In this document: piece after piece, positions 2,464 to 23,079 of the stretch
How positions within the stretch are numbered: position 1 is the stretch's first letter
Layout of the letters: every line of letters begins with the position of its first letter
DNA from: an uncultured Gammaproteobacteria bacterium
GTDB lineage: Bacteria; Patescibacteriota; Microgenomatia; Levybacterales; GWA1-39-11
Length of the DNA: 56,373 nucleotides
NCBI GenBank assembly: GCA_964651815.1
Contig: CAZYWG010000012.1
Span: forward strand, 1-56,373
Reading direction: 5' to 3'
Position numbers and translations under genes: made by a program
The notes under the pieces: model-generated
The model's input: only the letters and a program-made list of their open reading frames with translations
The model's database searches: none
What the model was told of the DNA's origin: nothing

Positions 2464-3036
2464 TTAGAGGTCTTCGCCGTAGCGCTTGTATGACTGAATC
2501 TCTTCCGGGTCAAACCAAAGCATTTTTTCAAAGTTTGCCTCCTCAACACTTGCCGAAATATGGACTAAGTTCATGACACCGCGTCTTTCATCATTTGCGT
2601 ATGCTGCAGAATCTGTAGAAAAATCACCCCTTATTGTGCCCGCGGGAGCCGCAACCGGCATTGTTGGGCCCGCCATATTCACAACATTTTCAACTGCGTG
2701 GCGGCCTTCCAAAATCATGGCAATTGAAGGCCCGCTCATTACATAATCAAACAACCATTTGTTAACAAGCTTTCCAAGTTCTAGCGGATTATCAGTCCCA
2801 AAGTCTGCTTTTGCGTCTTTTCCGTATTTTGTATAAGTAGCAAGCGTTTTTTCTCCCCAGCGCTTAAGAGTTGCTTCTTTATCAGATTGATAATGCTTGA
2901 GGAGAATATCTTCTGTGGGTGAAACCATTTTTATGGCAACTATTTTGAGTCCCATCCTTTCAAATCTGTGGATCAATTCGCCAATAATCCCACGCTTAAC
3001 GCCGTCCGGCTTAATGAGTACTAATGTTTGTTCCAT
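2464..3036 (-). CDS. ndk: Nucleoside-diphosphate kinase
   Basis: EQTLVLIKPDGVKRG, GTIRGDF and catalytic N-x-V-H-x-S motifs. Confidence 0.97.
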   Translation of the reverse strand: MEQTLVLIKPDGVKRGIIGELIHRFERMGLKIVAIKMVSPTEDILLKHYQSDKEATLKRWGEKTLATYTKYGKDAKADFGTDNPLELGKLVNKWLFDYVMSGPSIAMILEGRHAVENVVNMAGPTMPVAAPAGTIRGDFSTDSAAYANDERRGVMNLVHISASVEEANFEKMLWFDPEEIQSYKRYGEDL

Positions 3037-3114: not shown

Positions 3115-4383
3115 CTAATCAAGGAAGTTTTTGAAACGTGCTTCGTCTTTAAAGTCACCAATTATCGCAAGGTTTAGAGGTTGGGATAAAAATTCTTTTG
3201 CAACTGATAATACTTCTTCAAGTGTTACTTTTTCAACTCTGGCAATCACTTCAGAAGGCTCTTCAAGTTTTTTCTCAAGCAAAAAGTCAGAACCATAATA
3301 AACTGCAACAGAACGTGTATCTTCCAGCTCCAAAACAAAGTGCCCTTTTACAAATTCTTTTGCTTTTGTGAGCTCTGCTGCCGTAATTTCTCCCGCCTTT
3401 TGAACTTTTTTATATTCTTCAATTACCACTTTTATTGCGTCGTCAATTCTGGCAGGATCAGCCCCTACATATGTTGTCAAATGCCCACAATCTAGATAAT
3501 TTTCAGAAATTGTCCTCACATAATAAGCCAATCCGCGCTTCTCTCTGACTTCATGGAATAAGCGGGACGACATTCCGCCCCCAAGAATTGCGGCAAGAAG
3601 GCTCAAGGGATAACGCTTTGCTTCATCAGGCAAACCAACAGCTCTCACTCCAAGCGCAAAATGCGCCTGGTCAGTTTTTTTGTATCTTATTTTGACGGCC
3701 GGCTTTACTTGTCCTTCAATAACTGACCTATACCCTTCCGTAGTAAAAGTTGGAAGGGAGCTGAAATATTTTTCTACCAAGGCAAGACCGTCTTTCACGC
3801 TAATTTTCCCTGCAACTACAACTACCATATTAGTTGCCGAATATAACTTTCTCATGTATTTAACAAAATCTTCCCTTTTGGCACCTCGGATTACATCTTT
3901 GCTCCCCGCAATATCCCAACCCATTGGCGTATCACCATATAATAATTCTTCATATACGTCCCCTATTTTTCTTGGCGGCGTGTCTTCATATAAATTAATT
4001 TCTTCCATGATAACTCCTTTTTCTTTGTCAATTTCCTTTTGGTCGAGAAGCAAGTTTGTGAGCATATCGGAGAGGATGTCGAGTGAAAGCTCCACCCTAT
4101 GCGCTGCCGACTTAATGTAATAACCTGTGTATTCTTTGCCCGTAAACGCGTTGCTTTCAGCCCCCGCGCCGTCTATTAATGAGGAGATTTCTATTGCTGT
4201 TGGCCTTTTTTTGGTCCCTTTGAAAGCCATGTGTTCTAAAAAATGCGAGATTCCTGAGTTTGTTTTGTCTTCATAACGGCTGCCTGCGCCTACCATTATC
4301 ATAGTGGTGGCCGACTCCATTTCCATGATTGGCGCAATAACAACATTAAGGCCGTTTGCAAGTTTTGAATGAGTAAATTTCAT
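3115..4383 (-). CDS. M16 family zinc metallopeptidase (pitrilysin-like)
   Basis: GISHFLEHMAFKGT (HxxEH); GGGMSSRLFHEVREKRGLAY. Confidence 0.95.
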   Translation of the reverse strand: MKFTHSKLANGLNVVIAPIMEMESATTMIMVGAGSRYEDKTNSGISHFLEHMAFKGTKKRPTAIEISSLIDGAGAESNAFTGKEYTGYYIKSAAHRVELSLDILSDMLTNLLLDQKEIDKEKGVIMEEINLYEDTPPRKIGDVYEELLYGDTPMGWDIAGSKDVIRGAKREDFVKYMRKLYSATNMVVVVAGKISVKDGLALVEKYFSSLPTFTTEGYRSVIEGQVKPAVKIRYKKTDQAHFALGVRAVGLPDEAKRYPLSLLAAILGGGMSSRLFHEVREKRGLAYYVRTISENYLDCGHLTTYVGADPARIDDAIKVVIEEYKKVQKAGEITAAELTKAKEFVKGHFVLELEDTRSVAVYYGSDFLLEKKLEEPSEVIARVEKVTLEEVLSVAKEFLSQPLNLAIIGDFKDEARFKNFLD

Positions 4384-20488: not shown

Positions 20489-20546
20489 ACGCTTATCACC
20501 GAGATTGAATCCGAGCCTTAATTCAAATATAATTGAGGGACGCCTT

Positions 20547-20609
20547 AGGGTTTACCCTGAGGAACGAATAGATCGAAGGGTTTACCCTGAGGAATAAAGT
20601 GACGAAGGG
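20547..20609. repeat. Tandem pair of CCCTGAG...CGAAGGG palindromic repeats
   Basis: AGGGTTTACCCTGAGGAA at 20547 and 20577; a third copy CCCTGAGCCTGTCGAAGGG at 20886-20904. Confidence 0.65.
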
Positions 20610-20841
20610 CTGTGATGAAATGGTATCATAGAGGTCTCTCCATGAACATCTTGCCCAAATTGTTAATTTGGCTTAGATGTTCAGGATTCTGAATTTCTAA
20701 GCAGGGATATATTTATTAGGGATGTGATGAAATGGTATCATAGAGGTCTCCAAAACCTTTTTTCTGGGTTCGAATCCCGGCATCCCTGCAAGAAATTCAT
20801 GAACAAAACCTTTTTTTAGGGTTCGAATCCCTACGGCCCTG
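20606..20841 (+). tRNA. Interrupted outer tRNA-Trp(CCA): 5' half 20606-20638, 3' half 20804-20841, 165-nt insert
   Basis: Joined halves give AGGGCTG/CGGCCCT-G acceptor, ATGA/TCAT D stem, GAGGT-CTCCAAA-ACCTT anticodon arm, and TAGGG-TTCGAAT-CCCTA T arm. Confidence 0.7.
20718..20788 (+). tRNA. tRNA-Trp(CCA), intact inner copy
   Basis: AGGGATG/CATCCCT acceptor, G73, anticodon loop CT CCA AA, T arm CTGGG-TTCGAAT-CCCGG. Confidence 0.93.
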
Positions 20842-20847
20842 CATTAG

Positions 20848-20880
20848 ATTTTCTTAATGAACGAAGTGAATTTAGAAAAT
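20848..20880 (+). terminator. Hairpin downstream of the tRNA-Trp locus
   Basis: GATTTTCT...AGAAAATC arms followed by TTTT. Confidence 0.35.
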
Positions 20881-20948
20881 CTTTTCCCTGAGCCTGTCGA
20901 AGGGCTGATATAGTTTGGTATATTCCCCCCATTTGGTATAATCTCCGA

Positions 20949-21692
20949 ATGGTTGAAAGAAAATCAAATCCCTTGACTCCGGAGGCAATTGGAGATTTAA
21001 GAAAAACCTCAAATTACAGACGCGGCGTGACATTTATCATGCAACACGTACTAGACAGACTTTGGTCCTATAAACAATCAGGTATTGCGGGAGAGCGCGG
21101 ATACGATCATACATTTGCCCAACTGTTGTCTAACTCCGAGGGTAACTCGCTACAAGACGTTTTAGACAATAAATCAAATCCCTTGGTGTTGGATCTTATG
21201 AGCAATGGTGGCTTTGTAAGGCAATTAAAAGGCGCCAGGGGCCTGTCAGTGTCTCTTAGTAATCAGAGATCCAGGGAAGAAAGGGAACTAGATGAATCCG
21301 CAGGAAATGGATTCATCAAAGGTGATCTTAAAAGATCTACAACATGGAGAAACATAAGTGATTGGATTTCAAATAATGGAAGAGGTGATGGATTTGATAT
21401 GATTACCATTAGACCAGTAGCAGGTCTTTTGTCTATCCCAATGAACGAAACCTTCTATAAGTATGCTTTAGCAAAATGTTATAGTCTTTTGACAAATCAA
21501 GAAGGATATCTTTTTGCTCAATTTGATAGCCGAATGCTTAATTTTGTTAATAGTTATGTTGAACGTCTTTCAGCAGTCAAAGGCGTTCAAGTAAAAGTTT
21601 TAAGTACGGCCAAAGACCCCGAAGACCATCCTACTTTTATGTTAGTTAAACACGAAGAAGCTCCAAAATCATTAAAGGAACTGCCTCTATAA
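20949..21692 (+). CDS. Hypothetical protein with a probable divergent class I SAM-methyltransferase fold
   Basis: VLDLMSNGG, IKGDL, FDMIT and SLLTNQEGYLF spaced like MTase motifs I-VI. Confidence 0.5.
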   Translation: MVERKSNPLTPEAIGDLRKTSNYRRGVTFIMQHVLDRLWSYKQSGIAGERGYDHTFAQLLSNSEGNSLQDVLDNKSNPLVLDLMSNGGFVRQLKGARGLSVSLSNQRSREERELDESAGNGFIKGDLKRSTTWRNISDWISNNGRGDGFDMITIRPVAGLLSIPMNETFYKYALAKCYSLLTNQEGYLFAQFDSRMLNFVNSYVERLSAVKGVQVKVLSTAKDPEDHPTFMLVKHEEAPKSLKELPL

Positions 21693-21838: not shown

Positions 21839-22657
21839 TTGCCTTCTGTTACACAGTATGGGAAAAAAAAAGGAAGAGCTACTGCAGCAAAGATAAAAAG
21901 CAATACAGAACCTAGGTTGATAAGCGCAACGTTAAAAGGTGCAATACAAGAAAGAATTATCCCTCAAGATCACTCAAGTATTATTCCCGGAATCAATGTA
22001 AACGAGCTTAAGCGCTCGCTAGATCTTCTAAAATATGCACTTGACTACTCGGAAGCAATTGTAGACACGGTAAGAACCCCCTTGATTGTTCTCAATAAGG
22101 AGCTCCATGTATTAACTGCGAATAGGTCATTCTATGATACTTTCAAAACAACTTCGCTTGAAACAGAAAACAAATTTATCTTTGACTTAGGTGAGAAATC
22201 CTGGGACGTTCCCAAATTCAAAACACTACTCGAAAAAATCCTTCCGTCCAATACCCATCTTGATAATTATGAGGTGGAGATTAATCATCCTAAAATCGGA
22301 CATAGAACTATGCTACTGTCAGCAAGGCGTACGTATCGTCAAGTAAATAATACGGAAGCAATTCTTCTAGCCTTTGAAGACATTACTGCCCGCAGATTAT
22401 TGGAGCGTCAAAAAGATGATTTTATTGGAATTGTTTCTCATGAACTTAAGACTCCCCTCACAAGCATTCTTGGATATTCTCACCTACTAAAACAGCATCT
22501 TGAAAAAATCGAAGATAAGCGAGGAGAATATTTTCTTTCCAGAATGACCGGACAAATGGAAAGGCTGACGCAGCTTATGGCATCTTTTGTAAACGTCTAC
22601 AAAATACAGAGTGGTAAGCTCGCTCTGAGGAAAAAAAGTTTTCATTTGATAATATGA
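21839..22657 (+). CDS. PAS + HisKA part of a cytoplasmic sensor histidine kinase (frameshifted from the next ORF)
   Basis: PAS (EAIVDTVRTPLIVLN...ANRSFY) and H-box (VSHELKTPLTSI). Confidence 0.85.
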   Translation: MPSVTQYGKKKGRATAAKIKSNTEPRLISATLKGAIQERIIPQDHSSIIPGINVNELKRSLDLLKYALDYSEAIVDTVRTPLIVLNKELHVLTANRSFYDTFKTTSLETENKFIFDLGEKSWDVPKFKTLLEKILPSNTHLDNYEVEINHPKIGHRTMLLSARRTYRQVNNTEAILLAFEDITARRLLERQKDDFIGIVSHELKTPLTSILGYSHLLKQHLEKIEDKRGEYFLSRMTGQMERLTQLMASFVNVYKIQSGKLALRKKSFHLII

Positions 22658-23079
22658 TAGAAAGTATTATTGCCGATTTTCAATTCACCTCAAAGTCACA
22701 CGTTATCAATCATTTTGGATCTACCGGAGTTGAAGTACTTGCAGATCGCGATAGAATTATTCAAGTTTTGATAAATCTAATTACAAATGCAATAAAATAC
22801 TCTCCTAAAGCTGATAAAATCACTGTAACAACGAAAAAAATGGGAAGTAAAGTTGAGGTTTGTATCCAGGATTTTGGCCCCGGAATTCCAAAAGAAGAAC
22901 AAGAAAAAATATTTGAGAGGTTTTTTAGATCACACAACAAAGCAGAATCAAATATCTCAGGCTTGGGACTCGGACTCTACATCTCAACAGAGATAATACG
23001 AAGGCACAGAGGAAAACTTTGGGTGGAAAGCACAAAAGGAAAAGGTTCAAAATTCTACTTCTCTTTACCCATTAATTAA
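22654..23079 (+). CDS. HATPase_c part of the same histidine kinase
   Basis: N box (QVLINLITNAIKYS), G1 (DFGPGI), F box, G2 (GLGLGLYI). Confidence 0.88.
   Translation: MIESIIADFQFTSKSHVINHFGSTGVEVLADRDRIIQVLINLITNAIKYSPKADKITVTTKKMGSKVEVCIQDFGPGIPKEEQEKIFERFFRSHNKAESNISGLGLGLYISTEIIRRHRGKLWVESTKGKGSKFYFSLPIN

Follow-up and report, generated by a model that had tools for sequence, protein, structure and literature searches.

The window analyzed here, meaning the whole 56,373-nt stretch of DNA, contains a tRNA-Trp gene whose anticodon loop is interrupted by a second, complete tRNA-Trp gene and its flanking sequence. What is the interruption, and what do its strong predicted hairpins do? A preliminary description had proposed an RNA switch, in which mutually exclusive folds alternate between maturing the inner tRNA and presenting the junction of the outer one. 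Direct reading of the plus strand, to which all features below belong unless stated otherwise, placed a 165-nt insert at 20639–20803, splitting the loop at CTC|CAAA. The 5′ half of the resident (outer) gene (20606–20638) comprises acceptor strand, D arm, anticodon stem strand, and the loop bases CTC through C34; the 3′ half (20804–20842) resumes with CAAA and continues through the anticodon stem strand, variable loop, T arm, acceptor strand, and discriminator. When joined, the two halves were called as tRNA-Trp(CCA) by ARAGORN. The inner tRNA-Trp(CCA) (20718–20788; ARAGORN, and Rfam tRNA at 61.1 bits) accounts for 71 nt of the insert, its 3′ end being placed at 20788/9 by the two programs, and is the sole tRNA-Trp gene found by ARAGORN in the genome (1.36 Mb, 15 contigs, 38% G+C). 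No ORF was found within the 165-nt insert.

A promoter-like sequence of the resident tRNA-Trp, TTGAAT-17-TATAAT (20505–20533; 10/12 in a consensus scan), probably drives transcription of the entire nested unit, and a TATAAT-like motif, aatataatt, stands at the equivalent position upstream of the uninterrupted tRNA-Trp of a genome from the same genus (G006). Two direct copies of AGGGTTTACCCTGAGGAA (20547–20564 and 20577–20594) lie immediately upstream of the outer tRNA, the last CGAAGGG of the copies extending into its first bases. Related copies occur on contig C11, before the tRNA-Trp of another relative (G018), and in the T-loops of decayed outer tRNAs, and by their sequence they look like another small tRNA-associated repeat family. 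Further downstream, a histidine kinase is encoded by two overlapping plus-strand ORFs, 21839–22657 (PAS and HisKA) and 22654–23079 (HATPase_c); the gene may be genuinely split, or the arrangement may reflect a frameshift or a programmed shift.

The insert begins with hairpin 1 (20639–20686), in which TCC-A-TGAACATCT (20639–20651) pairs with AGATGTTCA-GGA (20675–20686) and encloses a CCAAATT/AATTTGG stem. Stem 2 follows, with a 5′ arm of TTC-TGAATTTCT-AA-GCAGGGAT (20687–20708) and, beyond most of the inner tRNA, a 3′ arm of ATCCCTGC-A-AGAAATTCA-T-GAA (20782–20803). Its core is formed by TGAATTTCT (20690–20698) with AGAAATTCA (20791–20799) and is lengthened by the flanking TTC (20687–20689) and GAA (20801–20803). 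The first 7–8 bases of the 3′ arm are the 3′ acceptor strand and discriminator of the inner tRNA itself; the last 8 bases of the 5′ arm, GCAGGGAT (20701–20708), are exactly complementary to ATCCCTGC (20782–20789), so that this 8-bp pairing takes up all but one of the seven bases of the inner tRNA's 3′ acceptor strand and would act as its competitor. Directly 5′ of the inner tRNA is an A/T-rich, unpaired leader, ATATTTATT (20709–20717). Hairpin 1 with its inner stem, stem 2, and the competitor complementarity had all been noted in the preliminary description and were all present on direct reading. It had also placed a CATGAACA repeat at both ends of the insert; both copies exist (20641–20648 and 20798–20805), but the second crosses into the outer gene, the last base of the insert being A20803. 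This second copy arises because the ends of the element are inverted (TCCATGAA...TTCATGAA; TCCATG...CATGAA at the position of the family consensus) and is not a target duplication.

Folding of 20606–20841 with RNAfold gave −80.0 kcal/mol and used hairpin 1, stem 2, and the competitor together. Relative to 200 shuffles, the z-score was −4.59 for this segment and −4.83 for the insert alone, which agrees with the earlier statement that the insert is fully structured. Pair probabilities were 0.83–1.0 for the competitor and 0.001 for the inner acceptor stem; an ATGAA/TTCAT stem at the junctions, suggested earlier as an alternative, also reached only 0.001. Forcing the inner acceptor stem cost ∼3 kcal/mol, a penalty to be read with the caveat that nearest-neighbor folding leaves tRNA tertiary stabilization out of account. 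Such a fold, as the predicted minimum, is what would be expected if the leader competitor and the acceptor stem were mutually exclusive and controlled maturation of the only tRNA-Trp; against this, the acceptor stem was predicted with P > 0.85 in 16 of 28 homologous units, and a ligand- or signal-sensing element is not apparent. G·U was compared with A·C pairing, and sense with antisense folding, as a way of telling selection on RNA from selection on DNA; the outcome was a weak sense bias (mean −0.75 kcal/mol in favor of the sense strand, from non-independent sequences). The hairpins may have a role at the RNA level, for example as a processing stem.

The exact limits of the insert, and the relationship of the two tRNAs, were established by comparison with relatives. 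The joined outer halves are identical at 72 of 72 positions to the intact tRNA-Trp of G006 (locus L009), with no base duplicated, which fixes the insert boundaries exactly. By tblastn, the G006 gene lies directly downstream of an orthologue of the upstream gene here (61% amino acid identity); this synteny of the empty site comes from tblastn, pairwise alignment being uninformative across the diverged spacers. The inner tRNA differs from the outer one at seven positions, all compensatory and in the acceptor and T stems, and matches the tRNA-Trp of G001 and G008, which represent two further species of the genus, at 69 of 72 positions. These compensatory differences and the closeness to G001 and G008 identify the inner tRNA, on its sequence, as a xenolog from a related lineage, not a local duplicate, and we read the outer tRNA as the resident gene and the inner as the arrival.

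Other insertions at or near tRNA-Trp were seen in relatives. In G006, a duplicated tRNA-Trp 3′ end, GAATCCCTACGGCCCTGCCA, occurs ∼95 nt downstream of the gene, after a ∼95-nt insert with a TTTACCCTGAG-type repeat, and looks like a T-loop insertion that brought a replacement 3′ end. In G018 (L010, 1203–1583), a 15-nt 5′ fragment of tRNA-Trp precedes, in this order, a hairpin, a small GIY-YIG ORF, and a complete tRNA-Trp; this is a different, D-loop type of insertion that likewise restores the gene, and a homologous ORF lies upstream of the tRNA-Trp of G001 (L005).

To find further copies, BLAST searches were carried out with the non-tRNA part of the insert, and homologous inserts were found in G068 (in tRNA-Trp) and G031 (in tRNA-Thr). 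BLAST also matched the 3′ junction to a site on contig C5 (L004), which falls within a coding region and was discarded as chance. A first pattern scan of genome contigs (CATCTTGC..GCTTAGATG) was loose, returning mostly chance and 23S rRNA matches together with two true ones (L095 and L132), the latter being a tRNA-Cys case. A covariance model of hairpin 1 and the conserved bases that follow it (R1, built from alignment A2) scored 79 bits at 20636–20702. Of the 151 genomes of the order, 22 were found by this model to contain the module, as were 8 genomes outside it, from seven other families of the class. All of these matches (29 and 8, respectively) stand directly upstream of a tRNA gene, for Thr (three anticodons), Cys, Trp, Ala, Val, or Glu. 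With a stricter pattern, at least 120 loci were found in metagenome contigs; among the matches listed, 98 of 107 distinct units had a tRNA at a median of 16 nt after the first hairpin, and the cargo was Thr(TGT) in 39, Cys in 25, Thr(CGT) in 14, Trp in 13, Thr(GGT) in 3, Tyr in 1, and antisense in 3.

The R1 model also revealed a second copy in the same genome, on contig C10 (locus L170, ∼64170–64430, minus strand), where a tRNA-Cys(GCA) is nested in a tRNA-Cys split at CTG|CAAA. The outer tRNA-Cys at that locus has extra D-loop bases and a 28-nt T-loop insert, TTTACCCTG...GAAGGG.

Nearly all units interrupt a tRNA in its anticodon loop and have the same order: outer 5′ half, TCCCAG, first hairpin (U1), GGGA|TCCC, 5′ arm of the second hairpin (U2), complete tRNA, U2 3′ arm (CTGGGA), and outer 3′ half. 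Among the matches listed, this nested two-hairpin architecture is common to 36 other genome units and ∼100 metagenome units. The family ends are inverted, with the consensus TCCCAG...CTGGGA often extending to about 13 bp. The U2 arms resemble those of U1, and R1 matches U2 on the opposite strand with the tRNA taking the position of the loop; hairpin 1 and stem 2 are thus described here as two homologous units of one cassette. In the units read, the anticodon of the inner tRNA is always that of the outer one, and this holds for each of the three Thr isoacceptors. Full-text literature searches turned up no account of nested tRNA genes in bacteria, a meeting report on the CPR mentioning rRNA introns only, and the two-hairpin tRNA-carrying cassettes apparently form a large, undescribed family.

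This breadth also bears on whether the locus could be an assembly artefact that joined two strain variants of tRNA-Trp. In favor of this, the assembly is a draft of 15 contigs, and long stretches are identical between the two copies. Against it, the same architecture, with conserved non-tRNA hairpins, recurs on more than 100 contigs from metagenomes and in dozens of genomes that are independent of this one, which refutes the idea in practice and leaves it extremely improbable.

Conservation was then examined pair by pair. RNAalifold of 29 modules showed compensatory double changes in six pairs of hairpin 1, and stem 2 was kept in essentially every unit, so that the pairings described from this one locus are indeed conserved among homologues. 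The competitor has a narrower distribution. In units with Thr or Cys cargo, a leader and a trailer outside the tRNA form the inner part of stem 2, and none of 52 such units has five or more pairs into the tRNA; the competitor is absent from all of them. The Trp units are of two types. Three (G121, L214, and L316) have a leader-trailer pair, GCAAATTTTT/AAAAATTTGC, and no competitor, whereas eight GCAGG-type units (this window, G068, G154, L249, L276, L295, L307, and L220) lack the trailer, and their stem 2 runs on into the terminal ...CCTGC of the tRNA. The GCAGG-type leader consists of GC plus a copy of tRNA bases 1–6. In these eight, each leader forms 5–8 consecutive base pairs with the 3′ end of its own tRNA (mean 7.25), compared with a mean of 5.83 with the ends of other units, a difference that amounts to covariation beyond the five invariant pairs.

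The competitor is thus a real and maintained feature of one cassette sub-lineage and not a family-wide design: conserved and covarying in the eight GCAGG-type Trp cassettes but missing from the three other Trp and the 52 Thr and Cys cassettes. With the trailer lost in that sub-lineage, the stem 2 arm now enters the tRNA's own 3′ end and has been kept complementary to it. We accordingly describe the competitor as the innermost segment of stem 2, complementary to the 3′ end of its own cargo in a tRNA-Trp sub-lineage without a trailer. The leader/3′-strand covariation would suit an RNA switch; it is equally explained by keeping the inverted repeat continuous up to the cargo. As a control of the maturation of the sole tRNA-Trp, a switch is in our judgement unlikely, and the alternation between inner tRNA and outer junction put forward in the preliminary description is not supported, the competitor not being general and the junction stem having a probability of only 0.001. 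In the transcript the competitor must still vie with the acceptor stem, probably as a by-product overcome by RNase P and 3′ processing with no regulated switch. The case suggests that a striking alternative fold predicted for an RNA may reflect no more than the inverted repeat of a DNA element. It also makes the maturation of the genome's only tRNA-Trp, whose 3′ acceptor strand would be sequestered by the leader of the precursor, a matter for experiment.

We next considered the fate of the outer copies. Among the matches listed, the inner tRNA was intact in 37 of 37 genome units and in the 98 of 107 metagenome units noted above. After exact removal of the module, the outer gene was still called as a tRNA by ARAGORN in only ∼8 of 25 units; the others had stem mismatches, deletions, or extra palindromes in the D- or T-loop (e.g. 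CCGCCAGAGGCGG, CCTGCCTGCCGGCAGGCAGG, and GTCCCG..CGGGAC). The outer gene in this window has no such decay and is identical to the working tRNA-Trp of G006.

An intact outer copy invites the alternative that the insert is an intervening sequence removed from RNA, cut at the bases of U1 and U2, with ligation of the outer halves giving two tRNA-Trp species per transcript; a conceivable route would be cleavage by RNase P before U1 and by RNase Z after U2, with an RNA ligase sealing the halves. Its boundaries are exact and conserved, its ends are complementary (TCCCAG/CTGGGA), the joined outer sequence is a perfect tRNA here and in several other units, and module and tRNA are strongly co-oriented (in at least 95% of units, with antisense cases for Val, Glu, and Leu); a quasi-palindromic module would show identical ends in either orientation, which would also suit this alternative. 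About two-thirds of outer copies, on the other hand, could not yield a tRNA even after exact excision, whereas the inner one is intact wherever it was detected. For the same reason, together with the absence of a tRNA splicing endonuclease from the genome, there is no sign that the outer junction is presented for use, as had been supposed.

Known intron types fit poorly. Group I introns have a P1–P9 core, are usually longer than 200 nt, and follow a 5′ exon ending in U (U·G in P1) while themselves ending in G. Here the last base of the 5′ exon is C (CTC|) and that of the insert is A (...TGAA|), and scans of 20500–20950 at Rfam gathering thresholds and by E-value gave no group I core, only the tRNA match, with noise added at E ≤ 10. 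The bulge-helix-bulge (BHB) motif of archaeal and eukaryal protein-spliced tRNA introns consists of two 3-nt bulges separated by a 4-bp helix; both boundaries here lie instead at the helix bases of a three-way junction, on the same side and not as staggered bulges, so that the cut sites fall outside this geometry. No EndA (PF01974) was found in the 94.8% complete genome in a search that detected EndA in four control archaea. Archaeal tRNA introns can be mobile and multiple, and like group I introns they resemble the cassette in interrupting the gene at the anticodon or next to it, between exact boundaries; unlike them, the cassette rescues the gene by a spare copy and has no group I core, EndA, BHB geometry, or evidence of splicing.

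The positions and the company of the modules argue further against removal from RNA. The module sits at 34/35 (Trp and Cys) or 35/36 (Thr and Ala), tracking a sequence (∼YTG|YAA) and not a structure; the 5′ flank is usually YTG, with CTC for Trp and CAA in one Val case. Three tRNA-Thr(TGT) loci (L321, L223, and L326) are nested three layers deep, each cassette lying in the anticodon loop of the tRNA of the previous cassette. Every module is accompanied by a spare tRNA, apart from an empty one, with a small hairpin as its U2 loop, in the anticodon loop (CTG|TAAA) of a broken tRNA-Tyr (L213, ∼3198–3300; L231, ∼588–690), and that broken gene has a complete tRNA-Tyr inserted at a later point. Taken together, we regard RNA splicing of the insert as unlikely. 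A more elaborate version, in which the hairpins are minihelix mimics cut by RNase P on the 5′ side and RNase Z on the 3′ side, the loop is resealed by a ligase, and the competitor times the order of tRNA release, is less likely again.

Further loci speak for movement or insertion at the DNA level. The cassettes of L216 and L302 are 93% identical and have identical cargo, yet stand in unrelated resident tRNA-Thr(CGT) genes with unrelated flanks. A copy of the module was found in a 16S–23S spacer (L309, ∼2941–3000), just past the 16S rRNA 3′ end and after ...AATTTG; no tRNA was detected in the next 420 nt. In G059 and G081 the right end is doubled. Decayed outer copies, nests, an empty module, a cassette shared between different genes, a position set by sequence, the few modules antisense to their tRNA, and the absence of EndA and of a group I signal together favor insertion at the DNA level, compensated by the cargo.

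We therefore consider it reasonably probable that the insert is a non-autonomous double-hairpin cassette that moves as DNA and that the outer gene is its relic, the hairpins being more likely the element's own architecture than an RNA switch. The cassette consists of two tandem palindromic units, U1 (hairpin 1) and U2 (stem 2, with the complete tRNA-Trp as its loop). It would have inserted with no target duplication at CTC|CAAA, a version of the family target ∼YTG|YAA that is exposed in anticodon loops, killing the resident gene and supplying a foreign-type working tRNA-Trp; the outer halves would be a still-pristine relic. Transcription of the cargo would start at the resident promoter, and ordinary end processing would release the tRNA. 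Such a cassette would persist only where its cargo replaces the tRNA that it breaks, which would explain the constant match between cargo and target. Some observations sit less easily with the cassette. Its strong co-orientation, the several intact outer copies, and the precise ends would also fit a process at the RNA level. The G031 and G143 units have module and outer oddities in common and very different inner tRNAs, which a simple picture of module plus cargo moving together does not explain, and the reading gives no account of how a cognate tRNA was first captured.

Comparison with known elements placed the cassette between several of them. Like MICs and MITEs, it is small, has no transposase of its own, ends in inverted repeats, exists as many diverged copies, and carries a passenger gene between its ends; it differs in having two tandem hairpin units, a tRNA anticodon loop as target, and a passenger tRNA cognate to the gene that it splits. 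For a MITE of a DDE transposon, the terminal inverted repeats are present, but a target-site duplication is absent in the comparison with G006. Like PATEs (IS200/IS605-derived) and attC sites, it has hairpin ends, inserts without duplication by a short motif, and plausibly acts as single-stranded DNA. Unlike them, its ends are true inverted repeats and its cargo and target rules differ; hairpins and lack of target duplication match the IS200/IS605 type, and the 5′ flank varies (YTG, CTC, and CAA). No link of the cassette to a Y1 transposase, sought in this genome, or to an integron integrase was found.

tRNA genes are common targets of integrative elements, which bring a replacement segment with them. 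Elements that enter tRNA and tmRNA genes resemble the cassette in that the target is an essential tRNA gene and the cell is kept alive by the replacement sequence, but they encode an integrase, replace no more than the 3′ part of the gene, and produce a direct repeat in tandem, whereas the cassette is ∼165 nt long and carries a whole tRNA in a nested layout with no ORF in the insert. The insert could in principle be the scar of a larger element of this type whose interior was later deleted, and tRNA fragments near tRNA-Trp in relatives (the 3′ fragment of G006 and the 5′ fragment of G018) would fit such a history. The nested, not tandem, arrangement, the lack of a direct att repeat, and the carriage of a whole tRNA in place of a 3′ segment speak against it, as does the recurrence of a compact unit with conserved hairpins at more than 100 loci, which random deletion scars would not produce; we regard the scar as very improbable. 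Group I intron, BHB intron, DDE-type MITE, and integrase element thus each lack a defining feature here, whereas the locus has what defines the family described above, a two-hairpin module in a tRNA loop whose second hairpin encloses, between its arms, a complete tRNA with the matching anticodon. By analogy, the cassette would work like a MIC or MITE with a passenger gene, combined with integrative elements that restore the tRNA gene they enter.

Movement would then probably take place as folded single strands, as with IS200/IS605 ends, integron attC sites, and other hairpin repeats, the hairpins serving mobility as folded single-stranded or cruciform DNA recognized by a nuclease or recombinase. 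A search with PF01797 found no Y1 (IS200/IS605) transposase in this genome. An autonomous, ORF-bearing version was sought in L304 and L309, where neither a convincing right end nor a transposase-like ORF was found. ORFs around 30 loci were clustered; the largest clusters proved to be artefacts of translating the conserved module, and apart from these the clustering brought out no more than syntenic rpmG and small GIY-YIG genes. At ∼6 of the 30 loci a small single-domain GIY-YIG ORF is found no more than 1.5 kb away, which is only a correlation and a lead for a candidate enzyme. Such ORFs also adjoin tRNA genes here and in relatives, the one in G018 being inserted in the tRNA-Trp D-loop. In this genome a 90-amino acid single-domain GIY-YIG ORF (C11, 16162–16434; L175, 1486–1758) lies between tRNA-Arg(TCG) and tRNA-Lys(CTT); its closest solved relatives are the UPF0213 proteins 1ZG2 and 1YWL, and an NCBIfam search gave the small protein no name. 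Ssn proteins are single-strand-specific GIY-YIG nucleases associated with hairpin repeats (Chenal et al. 2025, PMC11893778). The likeness lies in small single-domain GIY-YIG genes near hairpin-repeat families, and the difference in that the protein tested from this genome is closest to UPF0213; by sequence the Ssn nucleases are a lead only, not a match.

If the insert is such a cassette, essential single-copy tRNA genes of ultra-small (CPR) bacteria would be repeatedly overwritten by tiny selfish elements, each surviving by carrying a substitute for the gene that it destroyed. This would offer a simple route to horizontal replacement of tRNA genes and would account for the "Russian-doll" tRNA loci and stray tRNA halves that confuse annotation. 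It would also define a double-hairpin structure in DNA, compact and conserved, with a structure-specific nuclease or recombinase as its possible partner enzyme.
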